Positions 28,763 to 48,357 of a DNA stretch of 64,000 nucleotides are shown piece by piece. The DNA comes from an uncultured bacterium. GTDB lineage: Bacteria > Desulfobacterota_D > UBA1144 > Nemesobacterales > UBA2774. A model generated the notes under the pieces. The model saw only the letters and a program-made list of their open reading frames with translations. It had not been told where the DNA came from and searched no databases. A program made the translations under genes and the position numbers. The stretch spans positions 64,001-128,000 of the forward strand of contig CAWGRW010000009.1 in the NCBI GenBank assembly GCA_963825135.1. The letters run 5' to 3'. Numbering within the stretch: position 1 is the first letter of the stretch; every line of letters begins with the position of its first letter.

Positions 28763-30002
28763 TCACCCCGGCAACACATCATCCGCGGTCTCGCCCTTTC
28801 TTATTATCCTCGCCTTGCCTTCTTCTATAATTACTATCGGCGGGCGGGGGAATATGAACGCGGTCGATTGCGGGATGTTGTAGGCGCCGACGTTTTTTAC
28901 CACGAGCCTGTCGCCGGCTTTTAATTCGGGGAGCTCACATTTTCCGATTATGTCCGTCTGAAGACAGAGCGGCCCGTAAACCGTCGCCTCTCGCAAACCC
29001 CCTCCCCTTTCGTCAACGCACTCAACATCCTGAAACCTCCAGAAAGAAGTGGGAAGGATGTTTATGCCGCTATCGACGACTACGGCCCTGACCCCGCCCG
29101 CAAGCTCCTTCACGGCGACGACAGTAGTGACCAGGTGCACGGCGTCGCTTACGATCGCCCTCCCCGGCTCTAGTATCAGGAGCGGCGGGTCCTCTTTCCC
29201 GAATCCCTCCAATATAGGCCCGGTCACGGCTTCGACGTAGGGCGCGATCGAGCCGACCGTCGGGAACCCGCCTCCCATGTCGATGTACTTCATCACGGAC
29301 GCCGAACCGCTCCCTCATCTCGATCGAGAAGCGCGTCATCTCTTCTGCAGCCTTACGGTACGCGCGCGGGTCTTTCGGCCATATGAGTCTCACGTGCCTA
29401 GCCGGCATGCCCCCTTCCCCGTGGGGCTCGACTATGTAGCTCGTCAGGTGGACGTGTAGCCCGGCGATCCTGATCAGCTTATTCCGTGAAGCGCTCTCCA
29501 CGGCGCGCTCCGCCTCCCCCGATTCGATATTGAAGCCGAACCTGTCGGGCATCTGGTCTATGCCCGTCTCCATGCTCACTCTTAAGCCTATATCGACAGG
29601 GCCGCCATCTTCACGGGCGATCTCTTCGAGAAGTTCTATTTCCACCATATGGTCGGCGTTTATAAGGGCGCCTTCTTTTACGGACTTCCTCAGCTCTTCC
29701 TTCTTCTTATACGGCCCGTTCAAAACGATAGAGCTCCCGGGCACGCCCATCCTCCGCGCGATCTCGTATTCGAATCCCGAGGCGGCCTCCGCCCATAGGC
29801 CCTCGCAGTGTATGATCCCGAGTATGGCGGGGACGGAGTTTACCTTGTACGAGTATGCGGTTTCGATATGGGGATAGACGGAAGAAAACGCGGCCGTGAA
29901 CGCCCGGCAGTTATTGATTATCACCGAAGCCGAAGCGATGAAAATGGGCGAGCCGAATTCGCTTGCCAGATCGTCGATCGAAACACCGTCTATTTTATTC
30001 AT
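28763..30002 (-). CDS. Fold-type III PLP decarboxylase (LysA/ODC family; frameshift near 29297)
   Basis: YSYKVN, EAASGFE, NGPYK, RFG; after shift IDMGGGFP, EPGRA, GPLCLQTD, GAY. Confidence 0.88.
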
Positions 30003-30008
30003 CGCGTA

Positions 30009-30953
30009 TCAGGCAAACGTCATGAATTTCGATAAATATTTGAGACCCGAATCGGGGAGTATAACGACTATGCGCTCGCCCCTCCCGCGTGTGCGCGCAT
30101 ACTCTATCGCGCCCGCCATCACCGCGCCGCTCGAATCGCCCGCGAGTATGCCTTCTGACTTCACGAGGGCTTCAACCATTTTTAACGCCTCGTCCTCGTA
30201 AACCTGAATCACGTCGTCGATGTAATTGAAGTCGATAACGCCCGGAATGAAGTTCTTCCCTATGCCCTCTATGCTGAACTCCCCACCCTCGACCAGCACG
30301 CGCTTTTCGAGATAGTCCTTGAACACCGAGCCTCGCGGCTCGACGCCGATGATCCTCACGCCCCTGTTCATTTCCTTCAGATACCTGCCTATGCCCGTAA
30401 TCGTCCCCCCGGTCCCTATGCCGCAGACGACGGCGTCCACTTTCCCTTCCGTGTCCCTCCATATCTCCGGGCCCGTGGTCTTGTAATGGGCTTCGGGGTT
30501 GAGCGTGTTGAAATACTGGTTCACGTAGAACCCGCCCCTCTCGCGCGCTATCTTTTGAGCCACCTTGTAGCAGCTCCTCTCGTCGGAGGGCGGCAGCCCC
30601 CTCGGCGTAAGCACGACCTCCGCCCCGAAGAGCTTTATCGCGAGTATCTTCTCCTTGCTTATCGTCTCGGGCAGGGTGAATATGCACCTGTAACCCCTCA
30701 CCGCGCCCACGAGCGCGAACGCGACGCCCATGTTGCCCGACGTGGCCTCGACGATGAGGTCGCCCGGCTTTATGAGCCCCCTCGCCTCCGCGTCGTCGAT
30801 TATGTATTTCGCCACCCTGTCCTTGAAGCTCCCGCTCGGGTTATAGAACTCGAGCTTCGCGTAAACTTCGCTTCCGAGACCGCGGGCGAGCTTGTTCACC
30901 CGGACGAGCGGCGTGTTGCCGATGAGGCTTAAGACGTCCTCTGTTACGTTCAT
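30009..30953 (-). CDS. Cysteine synthase/cystathionine beta-synthase family PLP enzyme
   Basis: IGNTPLV, NPSGSFKDR, ATSGN, GIGTGGT, IEGIG. Confidence 0.93.
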   Translation of the reverse strand: MNVTEDVLSLIGNTPLVRVNKLARGLGSEVYAKLEFYNPSGSFKDRVAKYIIDDAEARGLIKPGDLIVEATSGNMGVAFALVGAVRGYRCIFTLPETISKEKILAIKLFGAEVVLTPRGLPPSDERSCYKVAQKIARERGGFYVNQYFNTLNPEAHYKTTGPEIWRDTEGKVDAVVCGIGTGGTITGIGRYLKEMNRGVRIIGVEPRGSVFKDYLEKRVLVEGGEFSIEGIGKNFIPGVIDFNYIDDVIQVYEDEALKMVEALVKSEGILAGDSSGAVMAGAIEYARTRGRGERIVVILPDSGLKYLSKFMTFA

Positions 30954-32338
30954 CCTTTCCCCTTTATCCTCCGCACTATGTCGCGCGCGCGGTCGTTATT
31001 CCTGCTCTCGAAAAACTTTACGACTGCCTCCCTGTACATGCCCGACCGCGCCTCGGCAATCGCCTTCGGCAGAGAGTCCCCGAGGTGCTCGAACGCCCAC
31101 GTGTCGGGCCTCGATATGTTGAGCCTTATGTAGCCGGTCGCCCCCACGTCGCCCAGCCCGTCGCCCGGATAAACGGCGACCCTCCGCTTGAAGAGCGCGA
31201 CGGTCAGCTCCTGCGCCGTGACCCCCGCGCCCGAGACGTCCAGCACCATCGAGAAACCGTAGTCGGGCCCGACCGGGATAGACACGCCGGGGTTCCCGGC
31301 GGCTATCTTTTTTACGAGTCCGTAATTGCGCCTGATTATGGCTTCCGACTCTCTGGCGTACGCCGTGTCTTTTATCGCCGCAAGCGCGCCGTGCTGAGCG
31401 ATGAGGTTCGTGTTTATACGCGTTAGCGCGACCTTCGACACGAGGCATGCCCTCATCACTTCCGGGTGTCCGGCGAGAAACCCTATCCTCACCCCGGCCA
31501 TGCCGTACCCGTGCGAGACGCTGAACGTCGAGACGACGTTGTCAGTATTCGTCTCCCCGTAAAGGGAGCTCATCGGGATGTGCAGGGAATCGGGGTTCAC
31601 CCTGTGCGTGCCGTGCGTGATGTCGTTTATTATCACTATCCCTTTAGCGCGCGCGGTCTCGATGAGCGCCAGGAGCTCTTCCTTCTTCTGCACCGTGCCG
31701 AAAGGGTTCAAGGGATCGCAGACGATCACCGCCTTCGTCCGCGCCGTGATTTGTTTCTCCACTTCATCAGGCATCATCCTGTAGCCGTTTCCGGGCCCTA
31801 GCGGAATCCTCACGGGCACGCCGCCCGCCATGAGTATCGACGAGGTGAAGTGAAAGTATCCGGGGTCGGTGATTATCACCTCGTCGCCGGGATTGATAAA
31901 AGTCTCGAGTGTGTAGGATATCGCGGCCTGGCTTCCCTCGACCCCTATCACCTCGAAAGAGCCCCCTCTCGGCCGTCCGAACTTTATTCCCGCGGCGGCT
32001 TCTCTCAGGGGATTTATCAGGTCGGGGGAATAGGGGTTAATGTTTTCACTGTTGGTGTTATTGCGCATCGCCTCGACCGCGCTCTCCGGGGGCCCCGCGA
32101 AGCAGGTCATCCATCCGAAGTCGGCCCACGTCCGGGGATCGAGGTCTATGCGGCCGTTAGCGTATATCTCCCCCGCGTCTAACCCGAGGATGTTTATCGC
32201 GTCCCTGTAGGACATGTAGTTCCACATCCCGTGCGGGCTCTCCATTACGGACCTCACCCTCGCGGACAACGCGCGCGGGAGGAATTCAGGACCCGATTCC
32301 CCGCCTTCCCATCCCAGTATGAACCTTTCTTTTCCCAT
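30950..32338 (-). CDS. Class I/II aminotransferase-fold protein with Lys-to-His substitution
   Basis: INPGDEVIITDPGY, PLNPFG, NDITH, FSVSHGYGMAGVRIG, YIRLN. Confidence 0.85.
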   Translation of the reverse strand: MGKERFILGWEGGESGPEFLPRALSARVRSVMESPHGMWNYMSYRDAINILGLDAGEIYANGRIDLDPRTWADFGWMTCFAGPPESAVEAMRNNTNSENINPYSPDLINPLREAAAGIKFGRPRGGSFEVIGVEGSQAAISYTLETFINPGDEVIITDPGYFHFTSSILMAGGVPVRIPLGPGNGYRMMPDEVEKQITARTKAVIVCDPLNPFGTVQKKEELLALIETARAKGIVIINDITHGTHRVNPDSLHIPMSSLYGETNTDNVVSTFSVSHGYGMAGVRIGFLAGHPEVMRACLVSKVALTRINTNLIAQHGALAAIKDTAYARESEAIIRRNYGLVKKIAAGNPGVSIPVGPDYGFSMVLDVSGAGVTAQELTVALFKRRVAVYPGDGLGDVGATGYIRLNISRPDTWAFEHLGDSLPKAIAEARSGMYREAVVKFFESRNNDRARDIVRRIKGKG

Positions 32339-32363: not shown

Positions 32364-33212
32364 TCAATTCCTCATCATCACTACCGCGTAAATACCGTAG
32401 GGGTCGAACGTGATTTTCGGGTCCCTGAAACCCGCCTCTACCGCCCACCCGATTACCTGCTCGACCGGGCGGAGATGCCATACGCACCTCTCCCCGTTCT
32501 GGTTACGGAGCGCTCTCGCTATTAGCTCGATCTGGGGGTTCTTCGTCTGCACGTTAAACAGCAGCGCGTCCGGGTTGAGTACGTCCCTGAGCTGGGAAAA
32601 GTGTTTCCGTATGAGCGCGTCGTCGTGGATTATCCCGTAGAGCCCGACCTCTATCACAAGGTCGGGCTTTTCGGCGATCGCCTTCAGGCTTTCCGTATCG
32701 AGCGCGTCCCCGAGCCCGAAAGAAACCCTGTCCGTAAGCCCGAGACGCCTGGCCGTCCTCCCGCTTCCGGCGAGCGCGGTCTCGCTTATGTCCCTGAGGA
32801 GCGCCCTCACCTCCGGGCCCGTCTGCCGGAGCACGTCGTAGAGGTAGTCGGCGTCCCCCGAGGCCAGGTCCGCTATGAACGCCCCCCCGCCGTCCCTCTC
32901 CGCCAGGTAGCTGAGTATCATGTTTTTCTGTATCTCTTTGACAGCTCTCCACGCCCTGCACGTAACTTGATTGAGGAACGCCTCGTCGAGTTTCCTGCCG
33001 ATGTAGAACCTCCCGCGCGGGGAGTTTTTATAGACGTAATTCATTATCATCCCCGAGTCGAAACCGTGCCTGCAGCCCGTCCTTATGCCGTCCGACAATT
33101 GTCCGACCGTTCCGAGGAAGAAAGAGACGAGCGCGAAGTACCAGCCCCGGGGCGAATACCGGGGAAGCGGTTTTTGCAATTCCTCGAAGCCCGGCATTTG
33201 GTTACGAAGCAT
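32364..33212 (-). CDS. Class I SAM methyltransferase (YnbC C-terminal/Methyltransf_20-like)
   Basis: LSDGIRTG...GFDSG...YVYKNSPRG, DLASG, GDAL, GLY, NPQIELIAR. Confidence 0.8.
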   Translation of the reverse strand: MLRNQMPGFEELQKPLPRYSPRGWYFALVSFFLGTVGQLSDGIRTGCRHGFDSGMIMNYVYKNSPRGRFYIGRKLDEAFLNQVTCRAWRAVKEIQKNMILSYLAERDGGGAFIADLASGDADYLYDVLRQTGPEVRALLRDISETALAGSGRTARRLGLTDRVSFGLGDALDTESLKAIAEKPDLVIEVGLYGIIHDDALIRKHFSQLRDVLNPDALLFNVQTKNPQIELIARALRNQNGERCVWHLRPVEQVIGWAVEAGFRDPKITFDPYGIYAVVMMRN

Positions 33213-33768
33213 ACCACTCTATCTCCACGTCTTCTCTGTCGGCGTATATTTTATCGGCGACCGATTTTATCTCCCGGGCCCTCTTCTTTTTCGCAGCGGT
33301 ATCGGCGTTACGCTCGAAGTATTTCCTGAGCTGGCGGAGGTGTCTCCTCACGTCTTTCTGCACCTTCTCTACTACGAGGCGGCTCTTTTCGTCGGCTGCG
33401 TCGCGGTACACATCGAGGAGCGCCGAGAAATGAATGAGCGATCCCCAGGCGTACGCGAGCTCGTCGAACGTATCGTTGTAGGTCTCGAGTATGTCGTAGA
33501 TCTCCCGGCCTATCCGCGGGGGCGTGTACGTCTCGGGGGTCTCTCCGAGCTCGCGCGCCCTGTCCGAGAAGAGCTTCGCGTGCCTGGCGTTGTCCGCGAT
33601 GATCCCGGCCGCGACCAGCTTGACGCCGGGGTCCCTTATCGACTTGAGCTTCGCCCCGAAGAGGTCGACCCACGCGAGCATCCCGTACGTATGCCTGCTG
33701 AACGCCCTCGCCAGGCGCCTCGGGTCCGACAACACCTCTCTCAGTCTATCGGGATTGCGTATGCTCAT
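33202..33768 (-). CDS. Ferritin-like four-helix protein
   Basis: Paired DNARH and DVRRH motifs, RARELG. Confidence 0.6.
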   Translation of the reverse strand: MSIRNPDRLREVLSDPRRLARAFSRHTYGMLAWVDLFGAKLKSIRDPGVKLVAAGIIADNARHAKLFSDRARELGETPETYTPPRIGREIYDILETYNDTFDELAYAWGSLIHFSALLDVYRDAADEKSRLVVEKVQKDVRRHLRQLRKYFERNADTAAKKKRAREIKSVADKIYADREDVEIEWYAS

Positions 33769-33828
33769 AACCTTTACCCTCTCTAACTTATGCAAACAGG
33801 GATAGTCCGTCCCGGCGCCGGGGCGGAC

Positions 33829-34284
33829 TCAGTACATCTTTTTCAATATATCTATGATTTTTTCATCGCCCCCTGCGGGCGCTTCCCATTCCACCTGAAC
33901 GACCTCTACGCCCTGAGCCTCGAGAGCGTCCCTGAATATGTCGAGCCCGATGTTTACGGCCAGTATCTCCCGGTTGAATATGTCCCGCGATTCGCCCCCT
34001 GCACCCGTAGAGCCCGCTGAGATCATCTCCTCCATTGCGTCAAGCGCCTTTTCCGCCGCCTCATCCGAATCGGCTTCGACGACCATCACGAGGTCGCCGC
34101 CCCCGGCGCCCTTTATCCCGGGCGTCAGGAGCCCGGCGGATTCGAGCGCGAACCTGGCCTTGTCCGTAGCCATTACGGCGGTCGCCTTCTTCACCCCTTC
34201 CATCCCGCCCGCGGTCTTCGATATGCGCATCAAGCGGAGCGCGTCCTGAAAGTAATTCTTTTTGATCCTGAATTTAAGCGGCAA
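33829..34284 (-). CDS. Mini-FdrA: FdrA N-terminal domain fused to FdrA C-terminal tail
   Basis: TTG after AGGAG; IKKNYFQDALRLMRIS...AVMAT...DLVMVVEA, then VNIGLDIFRDALEAQGVEVVQVEWEAPAGGD. Confidence 0.8.
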   Translation of the reverse strand: MPLKFRIKKNYFQDALRLMRISKTAGGMEGVKKATAVMATDKARFALESAGLLTPGIKGAGGGDLVMVVEADSDEAAEKALDAMEEMISAGSTGAGGESRDIFNREILAVNIGLDIFRDALEAQGVEVVQVEWEAPAGGDEKIIDILKKMY

Positions 34285-34313
34285 TGCCCCTCTCCTTGAT
34301 CCTCCCGTCCGCC

Positions 34314-34700
34314 CTATGCGATTACGTATTCGATAGGGCACGGGTTCATAATGGTCCTGCTCACAAAACAGTATTTTTTCGCCTCGTCGATGAGCCCTTC
34401 CAGGGTCCGGGTCGGGACCGTGCTCATGACTTTAACGACGATCTTCGTAAATAGAAAGTTCTTCGTGTCCTTCTCCCCCTCGACCTCGACCTCCATATCC
34501 TCGACCTCTATCTGCCTCTTGCCGGCGGCGTATATGAGCGCCATGCAGAAGCAGGAAGCGAGCGACGCGAGGAAAAGCTCTGTCGGCATCATGCCCGTAT
34601 CGTCGCCGCTGAAATCCACAGGCTCGTCCGTCAGCACCCTGAACTGCCGGGCTCTCACGTCCACCTGATACCTCATCTTCCAGAATGCCTTTACGCTCAT
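34314..34700 (-). CDS. OsmC family protein
   Basis: TDEP...GDDTGMMPTELFLASLASC...KYCFVSRTI. Confidence 0.9.
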   Translation of the reverse strand: MSVKAFWKMRYQVDVRARQFRVLTDEPVDFSGDDTGMMPTELFLASLASCFCMALIYAAGKRQIEVEDMEVEVEGEKDTKNFLFTKIVVKVMSTVPTRTLEGLIDEAKKYCFVSRTIMNPCPIEYVIA

Positions 34701-34701: not shown

Positions 34702-35907
34702 TCATCTCCTCACCACAACCGTCTCTTTTTCGCCGATGCCGGTACCGTTCAGTATGCCTGTGTAGAACACGACGTGCCCGCGGGCGGCGTTCTCCCAGCT
34801 GTATTCCTCCGCTGTCTCTCTCCCCTTAGAAGCGAGCGCGAGCCCGAGCTCTCCGTTCTCCGCGAGCTCGATGATCAGGGACGCGATACGATCAGAGTCC
34901 ATCGGGGACACGAGGAGCGAATTCTCCCCGTCCCTCAGATACTCGGTCATGGGCTCTATGCCCGAAGCGATAACGGGCACGCCCGAGGCGAGGGCCTCCA
35001 AAACGACCAACCCCCACCCTTCCCTGACCGACGGGAAAACGAAGACGTCCGCCGCGTGATAGAGTCGGGCGACCTCGTCCTCCGATACGCTGCCCGGTAT
35101 GAATATATCCTTCCCGACGGCGAGCCCGAGCCTCTCCGCCCCGGAGAAGAACTCTTCCCTGTACGCCCTGTAATCGAAAAGCGTCTCACCGCCCCCGATG
35201 ACCCAGACGAGCCTCTCGCCTTTCTCTTGAAAATGAGACCTGGCAGCGTGAAATGCCGTGAGAGACGTCAGCGTGTTTTTCCTCGGCTCTATGCCGCCTA
35301 TGCTCAGCATCACCCTCGCGCCCCCGAGCGAGAATTTCTCCTTATACGTTTCTTTAGAGCCCTCGTCCGGGAGCGGGCGGAACCTCAGCGTGTCCACTCC
35401 GTTCCTGATGACGGTCGAGCGGAGAGAGTACGCCGACAACAGCTCTCTCTCCCATGCCTCGCTTACGGTGATTAAATAATCGGGCTCGATAATGCTTTTT
35501 AGCTGGCATTCGATTAAGGCCTCGGAAGTGAAGTCGTCTATATGGTGGACGGTCCTCGCGAAGGACCCGATCAGGCCCCCTTGTCTCAGGTTCAACAGCG
35601 CGTTTGCCGAAATGCAGTCCTCGGCGTGGAATATATCGTGCGCGAGGGCGTGCGAGGAGAGGTATTCGGTGTATATATTTATGTAGTCCCTGATTTTTTC
35701 GTCCATGCCCGCGTATTCCTTTTTCGGACACGGGATGAGCGTATGGGGGACCGATACGTCCCTGAAAAAATTTCCCCCCGAGGATAGCGAGTACACGCGG
35801 ACGGCGTGTCCCAGGCGCGCGAGGCTTTCGGCGAGGCAGAGTGTGTGCACCACGCCGCCCCTGGGCTTGGTAGAATATGTGAGGAGCGCCACGTCAAGCG
35901 ATTTCAT
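34702..35907 (-). CDS. MSMEG_0565-family glycosyltransferase (GT4 fold)
   Basis: YSTKPRGGVVHTL, HAEDCISANAL, RTVHHIDDF, GGIEPRKN, ETLFDY, EGWGLVVLEA. Confidence 0.9.
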   Translation of the reverse strand: MKSLDVALLTYSTKPRGGVVHTLCLAESLARLGHAVRVYSLSSGGNFFRDVSVPHTLIPCPKKEYAGMDEKIRDYINIYTEYLSSHALAHDIFHAEDCISANALLNLRQGGLIGSFARTVHHIDDFTSEALIECQLKSIIEPDYLITVSEAWERELLSAYSLRSTVIRNGVDTLRFRPLPDEGSKETYKEKFSLGGARVMLSIGGIEPRKNTLTSLTAFHAARSHFQEKGERLVWVIGGGETLFDYRAYREEFFSGAERLGLAVGKDIFIPGSVSEDEVARLYHAADVFVFPSVREGWGLVVLEALASGVPVIASGIEPMTEYLRDGENSLLVSPMDSDRIASLIIELAENGELGLALASKGRETAEEYSWENAARGHVVFYTGILNGTGIGEKETVVVRR

Positions 35908-36889
35908 TGAGCGCCTCCGTTTCGAGCATAGACCCGAGATACCTCACCCCGTAATAAATACCGACAGCCATGTCGGCCCCCGTGGTCGCCCCCATGGCGA
36001 GGAGCTTCTTCGCGGAGGCGGCCGTATCTTCGGGCCCTCCCGCGACGAGGCTCACGATCAGGCCGGTCGCCGCAAGAGGCCCCTCTCCGCGCCGGGCGTC
36101 GTCTATCAGTCCCCGGCTGTATATGGTGGTCTTCACTTTCGAGAGTCTGAAAATTTCATTTCCGACTTTCTTAAAAAACCGGGCGGCGCTCCCGTCCGTG
36201 GAAAATGCCTTTCCCGCGAAGCAGAGGCTCATGAGCAGGCCCGCGAGGAAATCGTCGCACGAGGGGGTGAGCCCCGGCCCGAGCCCGAGTATCGCCCCTG
36301 CCTTTTCGGAGACGGCGGCGAGATCGCCCGAGTAGAGGCCCCACATTAGCTGCTCTATGTGAGGACGCGCCCTTTCGGCCACGCTCTCCCCCCGAGGCTC
36401 GAGGAACACCTTCATCGGCCCCCGGAGGTCCACGTCCTCGAGAAGCGGGACGAGCCCTTCCCGTCCGGGGAACGTATAGATCACGTCCCGCAGTATCCTC
36501 AGGTTAAACGCGACCTCGTCCGGGTTTATAGGCCGGCTCCGCTTCGGAAGCCCCTGCTTTTTCAGTACGCGCGCATTTGAAATATTTACAGCCACAGCGC
36601 CCGAGGTGAGCGTCTTTCCATCGAAGAGCACGCGCTCCCCCGTCTCAAAGCCGAGGGATTTCATTGACGCGCTCTCGTGATTTTTTATCAGGATTGAATA
36701 GGGGCTTACGAAATCTTTATTCAGTATTAATTTCAGCAGCTCGTTCTTTCCGCCCGATATATAGACCGCGTGATCGAAAACGCCGTGAATCTCGCTTCCA
36801 TCGCCTGATTTCCCGAGGGCTTTTAACGCCTTCTGCCCCACCGACTCCGCTTCGAGCGAAATTCTGTTGACGCCGCCTGACTTTCTCAT
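35894..36889 (-). CDS. DUF2877 / YlbF (AllH)-like protein
   Basis: LGLGPGLTPSCDDFLAG and MGATTGAD motifs. Confidence 0.85.
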   Translation of the reverse strand: MRKSGGVNRISLEAESVGQKALKALGKSGDGSEIHGVFDHAVYISGGKNELLKLILNKDFVSPYSILIKNHESASMKSLGFETGERVLFDGKTLTSGAVAVNISNARVLKKQGLPKRSRPINPDEVAFNLRILRDVIYTFPGREGLVPLLEDVDLRGPMKVFLEPRGESVAERARPHIEQLMWGLYSGDLAAVSEKAGAILGLGPGLTPSCDDFLAGLLMSLCFAGKAFSTDGSAARFFKKVGNEIFRLSKVKTTIYSRGLIDDARRGEGPLAATGLIVSLVAGGPEDTAASAKKLLAMGATTGADMAVGIYYGVRYLGSMLETEALNEIA

Positions 36890-36978
36890 TATATAAAGCT
36901 CTATCGGGTCCCGTAACCGCGCGGGTATACCGTCCGCCCGCGGCTCGAATAACAAATCAGAACGCGGACGCACGCCGG

Positions 36979-40051: not shown

Positions 40052-40543
40052 CTATACAGTCCAGGTGCTGAACATCATAGCCCCGGCTCTGTGGTGCTCG
40101 ATAACGATGTCGAGTATATCCGTCGGGTGGATCGGTATTACGCCCTCGAGGAAGTTCGACTCGTTCTGACCGAGGAGAGCCGCTGCCGAGAAACGGCACG
40201 CGAGGACCTTAATGCCTTCGCTAATCATCCTGTTGACGAGGTTCGGGTAGAGCTGTATGCCGGCGCCGTAGCCGTCGTCGCCTACGTTCGGCCAGCCCCT
40301 GTATACCGGGATGCCCGACGCAGGGCCGTAGAACAGCACGGTCGTTTCGTACCCCTTCTTCTTCGTCCTTATCGCCGTCAGCATGTTGATGCCCGCGACC
40401 GAGCCCTCGTAAGGGACCGAGTGAATGAGGAATAACGCCTTCTCGCCCGGTTTCGCCTGGTGGTCCGGATAGAGCTTCTCCTCGTAATTAACTAATGCTT
40501 TACCCTTCTCGGGCCTGTCCGCTTTAACTCTGTTTACAGCCAT
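40052..40543 (-). CDS. MSMEG_0572/Sll0783-family DsrE-like protein (NitB-like)
   Basis: YEEK...PGEKAL...EGS...KGYET...YGP...RGWP...ACRF...TWTV. Confidence 0.88.
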   Translation of the reverse strand: MAVNRVKADRPEKGKALVNYEEKLYPDHQAKPGEKALFLIHSVPYEGSVAGINMLTAIRTKKKGYETTVLFYGPASGIPVYRGWPNVGDDGYGAGIQLYPNLVNRMISEGIKVLACRFSAAALLGQNESNFLEGVIPIHPTDILDIVIEHHRAGAMMFSTWTV

Positions 40544-40734: not shown

Positions 40735-41673
40735 TCACTGCGTTATCTCCGTCCCGCCCTTTCCGTTGATGGCCGCGTCCATCTTCTCGGCCGAGGTGAT
40801 GACAGCCTTCTTCCCGCCCGCGCGGAGGAAGCTTATGGCGGCTTCGATCTTGGGCCCCATGCTCCCCGGGGGGAAATGCCCTTCGGCGTGATACCGCTCG
40901 GCTTCTTCGAGCGTGATCCTGGAAAGGAGCTTCTCCTCGGGCTTCCCGAAATTTATCGCGACCTTCTCGACCGGAGTAATGAGGACGAGTATCTCCGCCC
41001 CTATGAGCGTCGCCAGCTTCTGCGCGGCGAAATCTTTGTCGATTACGGCGGCTACTCCCTTGAGCTTCCCCTTCTTGTCCTTTAACACGGGTATGCCGCC
41101 CCCGCCGCAGGCGATCACGACGTACCCCCTGTCGGCCATTTCCGAGATCTCCCTCTTCTCCACTATATCTATGGGCCTGGGCGAGGGCACGACGCGCCTG
41201 TATCCGCGCCCCGAGTCCTCCTTCATCACCCAGCCCTCCCTCTTCCGGAGGTTCCTGCTCTCCTCCTCGGTGAAGAACGGGCCTATGAACTTCGTCGGGT
41301 TCTGAAACGCCGGGTCGTCTTCGGAGACCACGACCTGCGTCACGAATGCGACGGTCGGGTTCGACATCTTCTTTTCCGTGAACAGGTTCCGTAGCCTCTG
41401 CTCTATCATGTACCCGATCTGCCCCTGGGTCATGGCGTTACAGACATCGAGTGGCATGGGCGGTATCGACGAGGACAGGCTCTCCTGCTGCATGAGGAAA
41501 TTCCCCACCTGCGGGCCGTTGCCGTGCGTTATCACGACCCTGTATCCCATATCGAAAAGGCCCATGAGCTTCCTGCACATCTTATCGGTCTTCATTATCT
41601 GCTCTACGTAAGTGCTCTTGCCTTTATGGTCCATCAGGGCGTTACCCCCGAAGGCTACTACCGCTGTCTTCAT
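40735..41673 (-). CDS. arcC: Carbamate kinase
   Basis: AFGGNAL, THGNGPQVG, QGQIGY, PTKFIG, RRVVPSP, VIDKD, GSMGPK. Confidence 0.95.
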   Translation of the reverse strand: MKTAVVAFGGNALMDHKGKSTYVEQIMKTDKMCRKLMGLFDMGYRVVITHGNGPQVGNFLMQQESLSSSIPPMPLDVCNAMTQGQIGYMIEQRLRNLFTEKKMSNPTVAFVTQVVVSEDDPAFQNPTKFIGPFFTEEESRNLRKREGWVMKEDSGRGYRRVVPSPRPIDIVEKREISEMADRGYVVIACGGGGIPVLKDKKGKLKGVAAVIDKDFAAQKLATLIGAEILVLITPVEKVAINFGKPEEKLLSRITLEEAERYHAEGHFPPGSMGPKIEAAISFLRAGGKKAVITSAEKMDAAINGKGGTEITQ

Positions 41674-43246
41674 AATATCCCCCTGTCTGTTTCTCCCTCT
41701 CCCCCGGCCGTTATCCAGCCCGCCACCCTCGACGCGAGGGCATTGGTCGGAAAGACCATCACGCCTTCTTTCCTGAGCTTCTCTTCCTGGTCACGGAGTC
41801 CCTGGGGGTCCCGCTCCGTGCCGCACACGTGAGCGACGTACGCGACAGAGCGCCCCTTTTTCCGGGCGGCCGCCTTCGCCGCCCTTATCGCCGGCAGGAG
41901 GTCCCCCGCCGGGTCGGGGCTCGCGACGTGGCCGAGCACGACGTCGAAGAGTATCACCGCGACTTCGGGCTTCGCGGCTTCGCTCAGGAGCCTTTCGCTC
42001 CGGAGCGTCGCGTCTATCATCGGGTGCGGGCGTCCGACCGTGAACTCCTCCTCCCCCAGATCGACGCACGTGTTGCCTACGCTGACGTTTGAGTCCTTCA
42101 GCTTGTTTTTCTTGTTTAGAGGCGCGTTCGAATATACGTCCCCGAGCGACAGGGTGAGTATCTGCTGCGCCTCGTAGCAGAGCGTACCTCCCGAGAATAG
42201 CCCCCTCAGGTAACGCTGATTGCGCTTCCGCGAGCGGACGTATTTCCCGGCCTGCCTCTTCCAGCTCTTTCCAGCGCCGGGGGCGTGCTTCTTAATGCCC
42301 CCGTTTACGAGGGCGAGCGCCGAGAAAGCGGCTTCTTCGAGAGTCGATACGAGCTTTATATTCTCGTCTTCCGGCAGGCGCAGACCGTGCCCCAGGAAGC
42401 ATACGACGGCGGGCTTTCCGGTCTCGCCTATCGCGGCGAGTATCTTTTCCGCCACATTTTTCGAAGGCGGCTTCGAGACGACGAGCAGCGCCTTCGTATT
42501 ATTATCGCTACCCAGTATCCTGAGCGCTGCGAGCGTCATTATCCCGCCCACTTCCCCCGACAGGTCCCTTCCCCCGACCCCTATAGCGTGCGTGATGCCG
42601 GAGCCCAAGTTGCTAATGAGGCTCGTCACCTCCTGCATGCCCGTGCCGGCGGCGGCTATCACACCTATCGGGCCCCTCTCCACGACGTTTGCGAACCCGA
42701 GCCCCGTGCCGTTTATTATCGCCGTGCCGCAGCCCGGGCCCATGACCAGGAGCCCGCGCCCGGACGCCCTTCTTTTTAGCTCTATTTCTTCTTCTACCGT
42801 TACGTTGTCGCTGAATAAAAATGTGTGAAGCCCCTTTTCTATGGCCTTCGAGACCTCGAGCTTCGCGTACTCCCCCGGCACCGAAATGAGCGCGATATTC
42901 GCCGCCGGAAGGACGTTCAACGCGGTATCGAGCCCCTTCACCGCCTCGGCCGTCCCCGCCCGCCGGGCGCCCTGAGGGGCAAGGAGCGAATCGAGCATGC
43001 CCATCGCTTCGCTGCGCCTTTGACTCCGTCTCGGCCTCGACCGCGACGATGAGGTCGTTCGCGCTCGCCTGCTCCGGGGCCTCCGTGATGAGCCCGGCTT
43101 CCCTGAGCATTTTCAGATTGGCTTCGGTCGCCATTATCGCCGAGGCCTTTTTTATACCGGGCAGAGCCGGAGAGCTTCCGGCTGAGCTGCATGAGCTTTA
43201 GCGAGTCCTGGTAATGATTCTTTTTAATTATGCTGGCTATCGCCAT
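41670..43246 (-). CDS. fdrA: FdrA (AllF)-like acyl-CoA synthetase-fold protein (frameshifts near 43165 and 43010)
   Basis: MAIASIIKKNHYQDSLKLM / MATEANL...NDLIVAVEA / ISVPGEYA, FSDNV, MGPGCGT, GLFSGGTLCYEA, GRPHPMID, GTERDPQ across three frames. Confidence 0.88.
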
Positions 43247-43308: not shown

Positions 43309-44604
43309 TCAGGCCGCGAGCTTATGTCTCTGCCCATACGCCGTGACCGCCTTTACGAAACATTCGTAAGGCGCCCTCACTATCCCCGCTCCTATCTGCC
43401 CCGCGCCCGAGCTCTTATGCACGACGGCGCTGTTGATGCTGGGCAGTATCCCCGTCTCGACCACTTTCCTGAGGTCTATGCCCGTGGGCGTGCCCTCGAA
43501 GTCGAGTGCCGGTATTCCGAACTTCGGGTTTTTAAGAGTCGTTATGAGCTGCATTCTCTTCGTGATGCTTATAGATTCCCGGACGCCCCCGCCCGCGAAC
43601 GCGGCCATTGAAGGCGCGGCCGCTATGGCGAACCCGCCTAATCCCATGGTCTCGATTATGGAGCTGTCCCCTATATCGGGCGCGCCGTCCTCCGCGCTGT
43701 ATCCCGGATTGTAGAGCGCGTCGAGGAGATATGGCGCCGGGGCGGTGAACCACGCGTCGCCGAGCCCGCTGACTTTTATGCCGAAGTCGGTCCCGTTCCG
43801 GGACATGGCCGTAACTATGGTCGAATCCTCTATCCCGTGCGCGGCGTCCATGGCGAGCTTGCACGCGGTCATAGTGATGTTGAGGAAGAAGTGGCTGTTC
43901 CCCGCTATGAACCTGTAGACCTCGAGCGCCCTCTCGCGGGGCAGGTCGAGCTTGAAGAGCGTCTCGGCGATTATCTTGAGGAATATGTTCGTCGACGCGG
44001 CGTGCCTGTTGTGGCACTCGTCCCCCATCTGTATGCCCTGGGCGAGTATGCTCCACACGGGTATTCCGCCCGTCATGCCGAGGGCCTTTTTCATTACGGG
44101 GGCGAGCACGTCCCTCATCCACCTGAGCCGCTTTATCGTCTCTTCCCCCACGGAGCCGAACCAGAGGACCTTGCCTCCGCCCTCGTTGAACGTCGAATAG
44201 ACGGTCCTGCCGTGAGTTATGTCCTTCGTCACTATGACGGGCATCGAGGGGGAGATTATCCCCGTCATCGGGCCCACGGCGTCGTGATAGTGATTGGGAG
44301 AAAATTTTATTTTTTTCGATTTGATCAGCGCCTCCGCGCCCTTGTCGTCATGGGCGAGGCCCTCGAATATGAGCGCGCCCCTGACGGCCCTCTTCATCGC
44401 GTCGCACATCCTCTGCCATGTGACGGGAGGCCCCGCGTGGAGTATCGTGTCCGGGGTCATCCCCGGAACGGACGAGAGCGCGGTATCTACGCCCGACAGC
44501 ACGGGCTCCGTCGAGAGGAGCCTCTCTAACGCGCGCGCGTTTGACTCCCTTATGCGGTCGCCCATGTATCTCTCTACGGGCTTTTCGGCCCCTTTAATAG
44601 ACAT
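43309..44604 (-). CDS. DUF1116 / YlbE (AllG)-like protein
   Basis: ILHAGPP, AVGPMTGIISPSMP, MGDECHNR, HFFLN, RNGTDFGI, DIGDS, GQIGAG. Confidence 0.92.
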   Translation of the reverse strand: MSIKGAEKPVERYMGDRIRESNARALERLLSTEPVLSGVDTALSSVPGMTPDTILHAGPPVTWQRMCDAMKRAVRGALIFEGLAHDDKGAEALIKSKKIKFSPNHYHDAVGPMTGIISPSMPVIVTKDITHGRTVYSTFNEGGGKVLWFGSVGEETIKRLRWMRDVLAPVMKKALGMTGGIPVWSILAQGIQMGDECHNRHAASTNIFLKIIAETLFKLDLPRERALEVYRFIAGNSHFFLNITMTACKLAMDAAHGIEDSTIVTAMSRNGTDFGIKVSGLGDAWFTAPAPYLLDALYNPGYSAEDGAPDIGDSSIIETMGLGGFAIAAAPSMAAFAGGGVRESISITKRMQLITTLKNPKFGIPALDFEGTPTGIDLRKVVETGILPSINSAVVHKSSGAGQIGAGIVRAPYECFVKAVTAYGQRHKLAA

Positions 44605-44628: not shown

Positions 44629-45216
44629 TTATGATGGCGGGACTGCCAGTATCCAAAGTAATTTGGCCTTGCTCTGTCCCACGTTTCTCCATTTGTGTTC
44701 GAGGAGCGTCCTGAAGTGGATGCTGTCTCCGGGGGCGAGCGTGTACGTTTTATCGTACACCTGGAACTCCACTTTCCCGTTGATGCAGTAAACCAGCTCC
44801 TCTCCCCTGTGCTTCATCGGCGTCTTGCCGCTCGACGCCCCGACCTCGAGCACCGAGTACGCGGCGGTCATGATGAAATCCCCGTACTTCGTGGCCGATA
44901 TGCCCTGGAGCTCGAGCCCTTTTTTAAACGTGAGTATCGGCTCGCGCTCATTCGCCGAAACAAAAACCACGTCGCTGTCCTCTTTTTTTTCTTCTATGAA
45001 ATGGCTCACCTTTTTTCCGAGCGCGTCCGAGATCTTCATCATCGTCGTGATGGTGGGGGTTATGCCGTTTGACTCGATCTTGTGAATCGCCGCGGCCGAG
45101 ACGCCCGATTTATTCGCGAGATCCTTGAGCGAGAGACCCCTCTCGGTACGCATGTTTTTTATCTTCTCGCCGAGCCTCGATACTATGTGATCTATCCGAT
45201 ATTTCTCAGCCGCCAT
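44629..45216 (-). CDS. XRE-family HTH plus cupin transcriptional regulator
   Basis: LSLKDLANKSGVSAAAIHKIE...HRGEE...GDSIHF...HKWRN. Confidence 0.92.
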   Translation of the reverse strand: MAAEKYRIDHIVSRLGEKIKNMRTERGLSLKDLANKSGVSAAAIHKIESNGITPTITTMMKISDALGKKVSHFIEEKKEDSDVVFVSANEREPILTFKKGLELQGISATKYGDFIMTAAYSVLEVGASSGKTPMKHRGEELVYCINGKVEFQVYDKTYTLAPGDSIHFRTLLEHKWRNVGQSKAKLLWILAVPPS

Positions 45217-46192
45217 TTTTCACCTGTGGGGTATTTACGGGATTCACGCCTATTAGAGGCTCTTCGTCAAAATTCCAGAACATCGCTTTTTCGCCGCCGT
45301 CCGTGAAGTAAACCCTGCTGTCGTTTATGACCCGGCCTATCGTTTCGCATACGAGGCCCCCGTCCCTGAACCTGTCCTTTATATATTGCGTCTTATCCGG
45401 CCGGGACGAGATGATGAACCCGTAACTCGGGAATGTCAGGAGCCACTTTTGGAGCGGCACGTCCCCGGGCGCAGGGATGCGGTCGAGATAGATTTCGGCC
45501 CCGGCCTTCGAGCCCTCGAGCAGCATGAGCGCTGAGCCTATGAGCCCGGCCATGCTCACGTCCTTTGCGGCGTCGGCGAGCCCCTCTTCCGCGAGCCGCG
45601 GAAGTATTTCGAGCTGCCGCCTGAGCTCGTCTTCGGCGAGCGCGCTCGAGGAGTCCCAGAAATTAAACGCCGGGTAGAACCTGCCTTCGAGGTCGGCGGC
45701 GAGAATAATGTCGTCGCCTTCGAGTGCGCCGAAGCCCGAGAGCAGGCGCTCGGCCTTTCCCAATATAAAAACAGACAGGGAGCCGGATTCGGCGTCTAAC
45801 GTCGTGTGCCCGCCCACTACAGGGACGCCGTAACGCCCGGCGTTGTCCCTTATGCCGCGCAGCACCTCTCCGGCGCTCTCCAGGTCTTTAGAGAAGAGCA
45901 CGTCCACTAGCGCGACGGGCCTCCCGCCCATCGCGTATATATCGTTCACGTTCGTGAGCACGGAAGTCCTGCCCGCGAGGTACGGATTCGAATCGAGGAG
46001 CGGCTGGTACACGCCTTCAGCGGCGAGCAGCAGATATCCGTCCCCGGATTTTATGGCCGCCGCGTCGTCGCCCAGAAGTATGTCGTTCCCGTCTATGCGG
46101 GGCGCGAGCGGGAAGTACCGCCAGAGGCCCGCGAGGTACTGCTTCTGAACGAGCCTGGTTGAGGATTTGAGTGTCCGGATCAGATTCTGCAA
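45206..46192 (-). CDS. sll0787-family AIR-synthase-related protein (NitF-like)
   Basis: GDDAAAI, LLAAEG, NVNDIYAMGGRP, VGGHT, AKDVSMAG, FPSYGF. Confidence 0.9.
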   Translation of the reverse strand: MQNLIRTLKSSTRLVQKQYLAGLWRYFPLAPRIDGNDILLGDDAAAIKSGDGYLLLAAEGVYQPLLDSNPYLAGRTSVLTNVNDIYAMGGRPVALVDVLFSKDLESAGEVLRGIRDNAGRYGVPVVGGHTTLDAESGSLSVFILGKAERLLSGFGALEGDDIILAADLEGRFYPAFNFWDSSSALAEDELRRQLEILPRLAEEGLADAAKDVSMAGLIGSALMLLEGSKAGAEIYLDRIPAPGDVPLQKWLLTFPSYGFIISSRPDKTQYIKDRFRDGGLVCETIGRVINDSRVYFTDGGEKAMFWNFDEEPLIGVNPVNTPQVKNGG

Positions 46193-46211: not shown

Positions 46212-46703
46212 TTATGCGGAGTGGAGGTCCGCTTCCATCAGCTGGTGCGTGACGCCTTCGTATTCGACCGGGTCGCCCGCGGGCTTCCAGTCGAGCCTCT
46301 TGAAAAAATTCACGTTCTGAGGCTGCACGTACGCGAGGAATTTTTTGCATCCCCTCGATTTGACCGTCTCTACGGCGAACCTGACGAGTCCCGAGCCCAC
46401 GCGGCCGTTCCTGTAGCCGTTGGCCGCCGTGAGTCTCCCGCCGTACCACGTGTCGTTACCCGTCGTATAGCACCTCACTCCCCCTACCATGACTCCGTCC
46501 GGGCCCTTGAGCGCGATTATGTGTATCGCCCCCCGGTCGCGCTCGTCCACGTCCGTGCCGCTGAATATCTTCTGCTCTTCGACGAATACCGCGTGACGGA
46601 GCCTGAAATAATTACCGAGCTCTTCCCCGTTCTCCGCGATCTTGAATGTGTATTCCCCGGATTTTCGAATGTGCGCTTCCCCAACCTGTTTGAATGTGTT
46701 CAT
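46212..46703 (-). CDS. MSMEG_0567 N-terminal-type GNAT protein (NitE-like)
   Basis: LRHAVFVEEQKIF...DERD...WYGGRL...GCKKFLAYVQPQNVNFF...HQLMEADL. Start placed at ATG 46703 because GTG 46748 overlaps the -10. Confidence 0.88.
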   Translation of the reverse strand: MNTFKQVGEAHIRKSGEYTFKIAENGEELGNYFRLRHAVFVEEQKIFSGTDVDERDRGAIHIIALKGPDGVMVGGVRCYTTGNDTWYGGRLTAANGYRNGRVGSGLVRFAVETVKSRGCKKFLAYVQPQNVNFFKRLDWKPAGDPVEYEGVTHQLMEADLHSA

Positions 46704-46746
46704 CCGCGGTCCCGGAACACCTGCCGGCCCGTCCACTATATTGGAC

Positions 46747-46775
46747 ACTATATCAACTTTAGTAAATCAAGTCAA
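46747..46775 (-). promoter_or_regulatory. Sigma70 promoter of the 19-gene cluster
   Basis: TTGACT (46775-46770)-17 nt-TATAGT (46752-46747). Confidence 0.75.
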
Positions 46776-46858: not shown

Positions 46859-46887
46859 TTGACTAGCGGGTATTAATTTCCTATAAT
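46859..46887 (+). promoter_or_regulatory. Divergent sigma70 promoter
   Basis: TTGACT-17 nt-TATAAT. Confidence 0.8.
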
Positions 46888-46916
46888 GTACGGAGCATAT
46901 ACTATAGGAAAACAAC

Positions 46917-47291
46917 ATGCCCATCTATGAATACCACTGTCCCAAGTGCCGGAAGGAAGTAAGTATTTTTTTCCTGACCGTGTCGGAGGCCCTGGAAAGA
47001 AAGCCGGCGTGCCCCGAATGCGGGAGTAAAAAGCTCGCGCGGGTCATCTCGAATATCTCTACGGTATCGAAAGCGGACAGCGCCAAAGAGACAGGCGTCC
47101 CGAAGGCCGGAGCCCCGGGTGAAGACACCGCTTCCCTCGCCCGCATCATGCGCGAGTCGAGCCGGAAGTCGAAGACCGGCTACGGGGAGCAGTTCAGCGA
47201 GGTAGCGGCCCGTCTCGAAAAAGGGGAGCCGTCGAAATCGATAGAGAAGAAGCTCAGGAAAAGGGTCGGCGAGACAATGGAAACTCATTGA
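46917..47291 (+). CDS. FmdB-family zinc-ribbon protein
   Basis: MPIYEYHCPKC...CPECGS. Confidence 0.88.
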   Translation: MPIYEYHCPKCRKEVSIFFLTVSEALERKPACPECGSKKLARVISNISTVSKADSAKETGVPKAGAPGEDTASLARIMRESSRKSKTGYGEQFSEVAARLEKGEPSKSIEKKLRKRVGETMETH

Positions 47292-47292
47292 C

Positions 47293-47399
47293 GGGGGGCA
47301 GTCCACGGGGCGGATAAGGGGGACAGACGAGCGGGGGCAAACAGGGGGCGGATAAGAGGAACAGGCGGGCGGGGGCAAACAGGGGGCGGACAATGGGGG
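47293..47399 (+). repeat. G-run tract with an exact 22-bp direct repeat
   Basis: Eight G4-G6 runs; GCGGGGGCAAACAGGGGGCGGA at 47331 and 47369. Confidence 0.85.
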
Positions 47400-47499
47400 A
47401 GAATGACCGGCGATAATTAAGCGGGACAGATAGACAAAGACCCGGGGCGGTTAGATAAAGACAATGGGTCAAAAAACAAAGACAAAAGGAGACAGTCCG

Positions 47500-48357
47500 A
47501 TGAGCAGCATAGTAAAAAGAAAGAAGATTTTCGATAACCATAGTCACATAGGGCCTGTGCCCGGCTTCGCTTACTACGGCCTGCCTCAGGCGGTGAAACC
47601 CACGACGGATTACGATAAGACAGAGGACTATATAAAAGGTATGGACAAGCACGGTGTCGACCGCGCCCTGGTCATGTCGAATTACGGCTACCCGGATTCG
47701 GCGCAGCCGTTCACGCTGAACCCGCTAGTCGCGGACAGCGCGCAGAAAACGGACAGGCTCATGGGGGCCATATGGGTCTCGGCGCTTCCCAAGGACAAGG
47801 AGCGCACGACCGAGGCGCTCAAGCTCATAGGCGAAAAGGGGCTCGTAGCGTTAAAGACGACCTGCCTCCTCGGAGGGACGTTTAACCCCGAGCAGTGGGA
47901 CAAGGAATCGGAAGAGCTCTGGACGATGATCCTCGACGCGGCCGCGGCTCACGACATGCCGTTCCACATACACACGAGCCCGGGCGGGGGGTCGGACATC
48001 GACGGCGCGCTCGCTCTTATCAGGAAATTCGGAAAGAAGGCAAAGATACACGTCGTCCACATGGGCGGCGGGGTGAGCGGCCATATCAAGTTCGTCCCCA
48101 GGTTCTTCGAGCTCGTGGAAGAGGGCTATCAGGTCTATACGGACTCGTCCTGGGCCGTAGGGTTCGGCTCGACGTGGCTCCTCGAGGAGATAGAGCGGAG
48201 AGGCGTCGGAGGCGACCGCTTCCTGTTCGGCTCCGATATACCGTGGAGCGATTTCGCGTCCGAGTACTGGAAGATAGAAGGCGCCGACGTATCGGAAAAA
48301 CTGAAAGCGGATATATTCTGGAACAACGCCGAGAAGCTCTACGGCAAGTTCTGGTGA
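47500..48357 (+). CDS. Amidohydrolase_2 family metal-dependent hydrolase
   Basis: DNHSH, HIHT, VHMGG, YTDSS, FGSDIPW, NAEKLY; AAGGAG RBS. Confidence 0.9.
   Translation: MSSIVKRKKIFDNHSHIGPVPGFAYYGLPQAVKPTTDYDKTEDYIKGMDKHGVDRALVMSNYGYPDSAQPFTLNPLVADSAQKTDRLMGAIWVSALPKDKERTTEALKLIGEKGLVALKTTCLLGGTFNPEQWDKESEELWTMILDAAAAHDMPFHIHTSPGGGSDIDGALALIRKFGKKAKIHVVHMGGGVSGHIKFVPRFFELVEEGYQVYTDSSWAVGFGSTWLLEEIERRGVGGDRFLFGSDIPWSDFASEYWKIEGADVSEKLKADIFWNNAEKLYGKFW

Follow-up and report, generated by a model that had tools for sequence, protein, structure and literature searches.

The Nit1C (or gpr) cluster has been found across many phyla, responds to nitrogen starvation with strong induction, and has been tied to cyanide assimilation, peroxide resistance, and polyhydroxybutyrate accumulation, and to our knowledge its biochemistry is still unsolved twenty years after the first description. 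Its described forms were nitBCDEFGH in Pseudomonas, sll0783 to sll0787 in Synechocystis, and gpr (MSMEG_0565 to MSMEG_0572) in Mycobacterium smegmatis. A Nit1C-like cluster was identified here in a 64,000-nt stretch (referred to below as the window, with all positions counted from its first letter) from an uncultured bacterium of the GTDB lineage Desulfobacterota_D (GenBank assembly GCA_963825135.1, contig CAWGRW010000009.1, positions 64,001 to 128,000 of the forward strand). It had no nitrilase, and it was physically and evolutionarily joined to a carbamoyltransferase/carbamate-kinase module related to Escherichia coli allFGHK (the All module: FdrA/AllF, AllG, AllH, and carbamate kinase).

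As set out in PMC1199592, the canonical Nit1C order was hypothetical protein (NitB/MSMEG_0572 type), nitrilase, radical SAM, GNAT, AIRS, and a protein of about 100 aa, with the flavoprotein gene located at one or the other cluster end. The M. smegmatis cluster was reported in PMC6039565 to be induced more than 100-fold by nitrogen starvation and to give peroxide resistance and a higher NADPH/NADP ratio, and the Pseudomonas cluster was linked to, and needed for, growth on cyanide, its nitrilase handling cyanide poorly (PMC11049912, PMC7815647). According to PMC11326118 and PMC9843812, E. coli AllFGH forms oxamate and carbamoyl phosphate from oxalurate, and AllK is a carbamate kinase with a catabolic role; the E. 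coli oxamate transcarbamylase (OXTCase) was assayed in the carbamoyl-transfer direction (PMC11326118). In nitrifiers described in PMC12625717 as having no allantoin genes, allFGHK lay beside biuret/triuret genes and was read as serving nitrogen scavenging, so the All module behaves as a portable ureide-to-ammonia module. A full-text literature search (supplements excluded) found no account in which the Nit1C core is combined with the All module, Amidohydro_2, or nitrile hydratase.

About 100 cluster representatives were related to the window radical SAM protein at 72–92% identity (next best, at most 46%), and those with names came from Candidatus Dadabacteria or Thermodesulfobacteriota metagenome-assembled genomes (MAGs). 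One genome per species was scanned with an alignment of the Dadabacteria-clade radical SAM protein, giving 75 loci (numbered with L below) with up to 10 kb on either side, namely 48 of the Dadabacteria clade and 27 distant ones (37–44% radical SAM identity). Twenty-four window proteins were mapped on all loci by tblastn, including the high-GC actinobacterial loci, where simple calling of open reading frames (ORFs) fails. Residue alignments left out the L040, L039, and L064 pieces, which had a stop codon inside.

Core families, All module, and their joint conservation

The window cluster and Nit1C shared five families, each above its NCBI curated cut-off (Table 1): GNAT, AIRS-like protein, MSMEG_0572, radical SAM protein, and family 4 glycosyltransferase (GT4), the last also found in actinobacterial and betaproteobacterial canonical clusters. 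The radical SAM protein had two invariant cysteine triplets (Cys 119, 128, and 131; Cys 344, 347, and 350), and MSMEG_0572 had an invariant Cys116 (23 sequences). MSMEG_0572 was the best-conserved cluster member, reaching 93–98% identity where the radical SAM protein showed 79–92% (L001–L048; for example, 93–96% against 79–82%), which parallels the report on NitB in Pseudomonas (PMC11049912). GT4 also matched the MshA, BshA, and SenB models weakly. The likely true start of the GNAT gene was ATG at 46703, because the profile match began at ORF residue 32 and the GTG at 46748 abutted the –10 hexamer. A helix-turn-helix (HTH) cupin regulator was found in 29 of the 31 long Dadabacteria-clade loci (at least 15 kb).

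The cluster differed from Nit1C as follows: (i) it had no sll0784-type nitrilase; (ii) its flavoprotein was of CoA-disulfide reductase (CoADR)/NADH-oxidase type, while canonical MSMEG_0569 was a COG2072 protein resembling flavin-containing monooxygenases; (iii) its small protein had no match to the MSMEG_0570 model; and (iv) it contained about 12 more conserved genes, encoding AllF/G/H, carbamate kinase, Amidohydro_2, Zn ribbon, OsmC, FdrA N-domain, heme-oxygenase-like protein, methyltransferase, aminotransferase, PALP enzyme, and decarboxylase.

All four E. coli proteins had homologues in the window: FdrA/AllF (44% identity, BLASTP), YlbE/AllG (45% over 411 aa), YlbF/AllH (29% over 133 aa, C-terminal domain only), and YbcF/AllK (39%). 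The FdrA score against NF004760 was below the cut-off, with the N-terminus lost to frameshifts (see below). Compared to E. coli allFGHK, the window genes did not form one contiguous operon and had no allantoin genes nearby: allG, fdrA, and the carbamate kinase gene were contiguous, and allH was separated from allG by 4.7 kb, its neighbors being the 82-aa and GT4 genes. Window AllH was moreover about 215 residues longer at the N-terminus, and a second, free-standing FdrA N-domain was present. Among the 79 window ORFs there were no allantoinase, allantoate, or ureidoglycolate genes, and the substrate of the window AllFGH-like enzyme is probably other than oxalurate. The ammonia-oxidizer allFGHK was likewise joined to a non-allantoin amidohydrolase pathway, but its partners as named in PMC12625717 were biuH, trtA, and atzF, the radical SAM, GNAT, and AIRS core having no part in that account. 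An earlier reading of this DNA, made from the sequence alone (the original prediction), had named the same five core families, a set of FdrA, DUF1116, DUF2877, and carbamate kinase genes interleaved with them, and the absence of allantoin genes, and each of these observations held within the window.

The two gene sets recurred together. Two or more of the four All-module genes were found in 38 of 48 Dadabacteria-clade loci, and nine of the ten exceptions were cut off (loci of 2.9–12.8 kb, or starting about 1.7 kb or less from the radical SAM gene), the tenth (L038) being an additional radical SAM copy in a different context; among clade loci of at least 15 kb, 31 of 31 had at least three All-module genes, in a gene order nearly identical to that of the window. 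Of the distant loci, 17/27 had at least two All genes: those of Thermoleophilia type, Acidimicrobiia, Nanopelagicales, one Pseudonocardia MAG, and one Bacillota MAG. Their arrangement, unlike that in the window, was two divergent operons: (i) decarboxylase, aminotransferase, methyltransferase, 197-aa protein, OsmC, glycosyltransferase, FdrA, carbamate kinase, and regulator; and (ii) MSMEG_0572, Amidohydro_2, radical SAM, and GNAT, then AIRS on the opposite strand, followed by AllG and AllH. The AllH gene directly followed the AllG gene in all 11 actinobacterial loci tested with Pfam, and a Solirubrobacterales MAG (L067, 12578–15052) had AllG and AllH in one ORF, which fits both being subunits of one enzyme.

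The strongest evidence that core and All module form one system was that the gene set was kept through full reshuffling of its order across at least three phyla. The join put forward in the original prediction was thus borne out, and the possibility it had allowed for, that the two modules never co-occur elsewhere, clearly failed; the prediction had overlooked the Amidohydro_2/Zn-ribbon pair and the frameshifts described below. The remaining ten distant loci had no All module: three of them (L049, L052, and L073) shared the radical SAM, GNAT, and AIRS core but carried instead a TfrB-like CCG-domain Fe-S protein and an SsuA/TauC-type ABC transporter, and contained no MSMEG_0572, glycosyltransferase, All module, or nitrilase. 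GNAT was fused to radical SAM in L073, and several archaeal loci had the radical SAM gene alone.

The Amidohydro_2 gene and the absence of nitrilase

No CN_hydrolase/nitrilase was found among the 79 scanned window ORFs, among 80 ORFs representing the 98 unlabelled ones of 150 aa or more from Dadabacteria-clade loci, or among 46 plus 33 ORFs from distant loci, so the cluster is nitrilase-less both in the window, as originally claimed, and in the sampled related loci. Canonical nitrilase, MSMEG_0569, and MSMEG_0570 sequences were also absent from L049–L053, L070, L073, and L074.

A divergent pair of plus-strand genes, encoding a Zn-ribbon protein and an Amidohydro_2 protein, is part of the system. 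Of the 48 Dadabacteria-clade loci 33 had Amidohydro_2, as did 12 of the 27 distant ones, and its gene occupied three main positions: (i) divergent and beside the Zn-ribbon gene in the window and in 22 relatives (Zn-ribbon identity 44–92%); (ii) flanked by the carbamate kinase gene and MSMEG_0572 in at least 11 loci of the Dadabacteria clade, with a place after MSMEG_0572 in L039 and L041; and (iii) flanked by MSMEG_0572 and radical SAM in 12 loci of actinobacterial type, immediately upstream of radical SAM and close to the place of the nitrilase in canonical Nit1C. H26, H28, K131, H168, H170, H199, and D258 were invariant in 27 Amidohydro_2 sequences, comprising an HxH motif and candidate His/Asp metal ligands. 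The AlphaFold2 model (predicted local distance difference test score [pLDDT] 88.4) matched PF04909 family members in Foldseek at E of about 1e-11, in agreement with membership of this TIM-barrel fold, and a sequence search against the PDB gave marginal matches (E about 1e-3). An antisense 163-aa ORF at 46902–47393 was rejected as a gene in favor of the plus-strand Zn-ribbon ORF, which had the PF09723 match and was conserved in relatives.

Four sister loci (L059, L064, L069, and L072) shared the same core and carried, in place of Amidohydro_2, nitrile hydratase beta, alpha, and accessory genes beside MSMEG_0572 or radical SAM; their alpha subunits had a metal-site motif that we take to be typical of cobalt-type enzymes. 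This part of the cluster is thus occupied in different lineages by three differing C-N-directed or hydrolytic enzymes: nitrilase, Amidohydro_2, and nitrile hydratase.

Layout and remaining genes of the cluster

The system comprised 21 genes: 19 on the minus strand (from 46748 to 28763), numbered in order in Table 1, and the two divergent ones. The original prediction of 19 co-directional genes behind one sigma70 promoter was correct in gene count and strand, with two of the genes interrupted, while the single promoter is unproven; the end of its range at 48357 belonged to the plus-strand Amidohydro_2 gene, which was not co-directional with the others. The five stop/start overlaps it listed (45206/45216, 41670/41673, 35894/35907, 33202/33212, and 30950/30953) were all verified.

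Table 1. Features of the cluster, in minus-strand order followed by the divergent genes
No.	Feature	Positions	Strand	Details
	sigma70-like promoter site TTGACT-17-TATAGT, TG-extended	46747..46775	-	upstream of GNAT gene; 10/12 matches
1	MSMEG_0567/Sll0786-family GNAT	46212..46748	-	TIGR04045 143.3 bits, cut-off 68.45
2	sll0787-family AIR-synthase-like protein (PurM superfamily)	45206..46192	-	TIGR04049 357 bits, cut-off 321.3; AIRS and AIRS_C domains
3	HTH_3 plus cupin regulator, PuuR-like	44629..45216	-	PF01381 and PF07883; NF007408 65 bits, below cut-off
4	AllG (DUF1116) homologue	43309..44604	-	PF06545 288.5 bits
5	FdrA/AllF homologue, three frames	41670..43246	-	NF004760 419 bits for 444-aa ORF (cut-off 433)
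6	carbamate kinase	40735..41673	-	TIGR00746 404.2 bits, cut-off 358.25
7	MSMEG_0572/Sll0783-family protein (NitB; DsrE/YchN-like per literature)	40052..40543	-	TIGR04044 170.2 bits, cut-off 109.85
8	MSMEG_0568-family radical SAM protein	38785..39918	-	TIGR04043 336.9 bits, cut-off 303.7
9	pyridine-nucleotide-disulfide oxidoreductase, CoADR/NADH-oxidase type (flavoprotein)	37332..38681	-	Cys47 in SPCG stretch
10	82-aa protein, one hydrophobic segment	36979..37227	-	no family match
11	AllH (DUF2877) homologue	35894..36982	-	PF11392 65.6 bits, residues 231-345
12	MSMEG_0565-family GT4 glycosyltransferase	34702..35907	-	TIGR04047 396 bits, cut-off 259.85
13	OsmC-like peroxiredoxin-type protein	34314..34700	-	PF02566 84 bits
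14	free-standing FdrA N-terminal-domain paralogue	33829..34341	-	NF004760 profile positions 6-99, 68 bits
15	197-aa heme-oxygenase-like helical-bundle protein (predicted fold)	33202..33795	-	likely start 33768
16	Methyltransf_20 methyltransferase	32364..33212	-	PF12147 170.6 bits
17	class I/II pyridoxal-phosphate aminotransferase-fold enzyme	30950..32338	-	PF00155; PRK06225 and GntC below cut-off; PDB matches were aspartate aminotransferases
18	PALP-fold beta-replacement enzyme (CysK/CBS/cysteate-synthase-like)	30009..30953	-	PF00291 286 bits; NCBIfam matches all below cut-off
19	diaminopimelate/ornithine-decarboxylase-like gene, frameshift-split	28763..30002	-	one shift near 29296
	divergent sigma70-like promoter site TTGACT-17-TATAAT	46859..46887	+	11/12 matches
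	124-aa Zn-ribbon protein, FmdB-type Zn_ribbon_8	46917..47291	+	PF09723 46 bits
	Amidohydro_2 metal-dependent-hydrolase-fold protein	47464..48357	+	PF04909 69 bits; likely start 47500

Non-overlapping intergenic distances on the minus strand were all at most 191 bp. Although the promoter-like site before the GNAT gene was a strong one, such sites were not enriched across the region (11 versus 7.3 ± 3.3 in shuffled sequence), and more than one transcript would be compatible with four internal gaps of 103–191 bp, a weaker promoter-like site (40678–40649) inside one of them, and a terminator-like hairpin (40057–40034) after the MSMEG_0572 gene. The MSMEG_0572 gene sat between the two longest intergenic gaps with the hairpin behind it, and its expression might be both separate and strong. 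An Rfam scan of 28000–49000 at E ≤ 1 gave no match, and hence no riboswitch that would indicate a ligand; that of the whole window gave two tRNAs and nothing else.

The flavoprotein and 82-aa genes, directly after the radical SAM gene, stood where canonical clusters have ORF6 and ORF7, an analogy by position only. The flavoprotein was closest to NADH oxidases, CoA-disulfide reductases, and a CoA-persulfide reductase (CoA-disulfide reductase model, 266 bits, below cut-off) and kept Cys at the expected N-terminal position; the MSMEG_0569 model was absent among the best 25 of the 47 families it matched, the broad Pyr_redox superfamily being common to both. The 82-aa ORF had no NCBIfam match at E ≤ 10, the MSMEG_0570 model included, and its gene followed the flavoprotein gene in 45 of 48 Dadabacteria-clade loci and in four distant ones. 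MSMEG_0569 and MSMEG_0570 had originally been described as unrecognizable here, which is right as to the models but passed over this pair.

The 197-aa protein had no Pfam or NCBIfam match. Its AlphaFold2 model (pLDDT 91.7) had TenA, CADD, BesC, PqqC, and UndA as Foldseek neighbors (TM score 0.66–0.74, E about 3e-3), and three His and four acidic residues (H35, D44, H72, H122, D148, E188, and E191) were invariant, a candidate di-metal site. This family was rare, with 80 representatives at E ≤ 0.001 among 1.84 billion proteins. Longer members held OsmC, Methyltransf_20, glycosyltransferase, or aminotransferase pieces, a sign of shared neighborhood; they were rejected as true fusions, since the domain matches were partial and looked like read-through gene calls. 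A weak likeness of the methyltransferase to MppJ/2-ketoarginine methyltransferase was set aside, being confined to the SAM-binding region.

The tail genes were not universal, occurring in 23–27 of 48 Dadabacteria-clade and about 10 of 27 distant loci. Five distant loci (L054, L057, L059, L063, and L066) had another tail, which was also seen in L039 and L041: a ComA phosphosulfolactate-synthase-like gene, DUF7714, an adenylosuccinate-lyase-fold protein that adjoins a PALP enzyme or is fused to it, and an argininosuccinate-lyase-like gene. This ComA/DUF7714 tail presumably resembles the bacterial coenzyme M pathway, a hint of sulfonate chemistry.

Elsewhere in the window, an apparent inserted island at 16000–22400, with a GC content of 0.43–0.51 (versus about 0.58), contained tRNA-Ser (17929–18022), tRNA-Arg (22262–22338), a HicAB-like ORF, and the gene for a papain-family protease. 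Also encoded were a P-type ATPase that carries a hemerythrin domain at its C-terminus (52686–55016) and a protein ending in an IPTL-CTERM sorting motif (9919–10710). Fragmentary genes lay outside the cluster at 5667–7547, 16965–17396, 50737–52042, and 63353–63922: the FeoB match began at profile position 28, HicA and HicB domains fell within one ORF, DUF7453 was spread over two ORFs, and of DUF4301 the C-terminal part alone was present in an ORF ending 78 bases before the window end, where it was possibly just cut off. The window assembly may be indel-prone.

Proposed route and competing explanations

Passage of a C1-N unit through carbamoyl phosphate is proposed from homology to E. coli AllG, AllF, AllH, and AllK. 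The reading preferred here, at a probability of about 0.4, is that a hydrolase or hydratase, an AllFGH-like phosphorolytic carbamoyltransferase, and carbamate kinase have together taken the place of nitrilase, the C1-N nitrogen leaving as carbamoyl phosphate and then as NH3 with CO2 and ATP. For the chemical steps, the flux direction, and the substrate, we infer the following route. The core (radical SAM, GNAT, PurM-superfamily ATP-dependent enzyme, MSMEG_0572, and GT4) would make or process a small cyano- or ureido-bearing intermediate, whose nitrogen would be freed by nitrilase in canonical clusters. Here, (i) Amidohydro_2 (in the four sister loci, the cobalt-type nitrile hydratase) would open or hydrate the group to give an N-carbamoyl compound; (ii) the AllF/AllG/AllH-type enzyme would phosphorolyse this compound to carbamoyl phosphate; and (iii) carbamate kinase would convert carbamoyl phosphate to NH3, CO2, and ATP, unless it were used directly in biosynthesis. 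The cupin-HTH regulator would control the operon, and the CoADR-like flavoprotein, the OsmC-like protein, and the amino-acid-modifying tail enzymes would deal with the remainder of the molecule.

Several points weigh against this route. The nearest structural neighbors of the Amidohydro_2 model were LigI lactonase, gamma-resorcylate decarboxylase, ACMSD, LigJ, and IDCase (TM score 0.6–0.67), that is, a lactonase, non-oxidative decarboxylases, and a C=C hydratase, with no amide, ureide, or nitrile hydrolase among them, and its equivalence to the nitrilase is a positional argument. L054 and L066 had the All module with neither Amidohydro_2 nor nitrile hydratase in flanks of at most 10 kb, and the four nitrile hydratase loci had no Amidohydro_2 match within flanks up to 10 kb, though one may lie beyond. 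If the role were purely catabolic, the glycosyltransferase, methyltransferase, aminotransferase, decarboxylase, and heme-oxygenase-like protein would be left unexplained; the MSMEG_0572 Cys, the CoADR-like reductase, OsmC, and the CysK-like enzyme form a sulfur/redox theme that points to other chemistry, and the M. smegmatis cluster was reported to give peroxide resistance (PMC6039565). Finally, with FdrA and the decarboxylase frameshifted, the pathway may be inactive in this genome.

The tailoring and redox genes are better accounted for by a biosynthetic role, which taken as a whole is somewhat unlikely: carbamate kinase would make carbamoyl phosphate, the AllFGH-like enzyme would carbamoylate an amino-acid- or sugar-derived intermediate, and the product would be glycosylated, methylated, and possibly sulfur-containing, with a role in redox or stress. 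By analogy with HypF/HypE, where a carbamoyl group is dehydrated to a cyano group, the PurM-superfamily enzyme may then carry out such a dehydration. This role is favored by (i) the conservation with the cluster of GT4, Methyltransf_20, aminotransferase, PALP enzyme, decarboxylase, and the heme-oxygenase-like protein with its candidate 3-His/4-carboxylate site; (ii) the weak GT4 matches to MshA, BshA, and SenB; and (iii) the CoADR-like reductase with its active-site-type Cys, OsmC, and the invariant MSMEG_0572 Cys. However, arcC-type carbamate kinases normally run towards ATP, the canonical cluster has the same core with no carbamoyl donor enzyme, the tail genes were not universal and were replaced by a different tail in five loci, and nitrilase and nitrile hydratase in sister clusters fit C-N breakdown better than installation. 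On the side of biosynthesis, peroxide resistance with raised NADPH/NADP was described for M. smegmatis (PMC6039565), and the E. coli OXTCase assay as described ran in the transfer direction (PMC11326118).

Decay of the cluster in this genome, with FdrA and the decarboxylase as true pseudogenes and the whole a relic even if functional in relatives, is quite improbable. Three frameshifts were found in two genes. In FdrA the reading frame shifted by +1 twice, once in a run of seven A near 43170 and once near 43015: tblastn with intact 515–551-aa relatives switched frame twice, and the start at 43246 with profile positions 2–27 fell in the ORF 42938–43306. The decarboxylase gene had one such shift, near 29296, its intact relatives being 405–410 aa long. 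Other window genes (FeoB, HicA/HicB, and DUF7453) were likewise truncated or split. Yet the remaining 17 minus-strand genes were intact and well conserved, and a run of seven A is a typical site of sequencing error; indel-prone assemblies are suggested because alignments with the DNA of the nearest relatives (about 89% identical) had 25–80 gaps per 7.7–10.9-kb block and these relatives also had broken genes. As a cause of the frameshifts, decay is no more likely than sequencing indels.

That two independent operons are merely neighbors, the All genes and carbamate kinase serving ordinary oxalurate/allantoin catabolism, is highly improbable: the clear allFGHK homology and the contiguity of AllG, FdrA, and carbamate kinase would suit it, but AllH lay amid the core-associated genes, the association held in all long clade loci and in most distant ones under a rearranged order, distant FdrA and carbamate kinase shared an operon with the glycosyltransferase while AllG-AllH adjoined the AIRS-like gene, and no allantoin-pathway genes accompanied them in the window. 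Chance adjacency is practically excluded.

Beyond the displacement of nitrilase, a more general scheme can be advanced with low confidence: the core would build a cyano- or (thio)carbamoyl-type C1-N intermediate, for example from cyanide or an amide, and this would have three interchangeable exits, namely (i) nitrilase, (ii) cobalt nitrile hydratase, and (iii) a metal hydrolase together with a phosphorolytic carbamoyltransferase and carbamate kinase. The possible nature of the intermediate is narrowed by variants in which the core is retained and the enzyme releasing the nitrogen is exchanged, and these variants offer concrete enzymes: the AllFGH-like complex, carbamate kinase, and nitrile hydratase. 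The recently discovered AllFGH transcarbamylase family is extended to a non-allantoin context, and two uncharacterized families are added, the rare heme-oxygenase-like protein and a distinct Amidohydro_2 clade. If the general scheme is true, the third exit would be the first assimilation of nitrile or cyanide nitrogen that conserves energy as ATP via carbamoyl phosphate, and the chemistry of the Nit1C cluster, unexplained since 2005, would be revealed.

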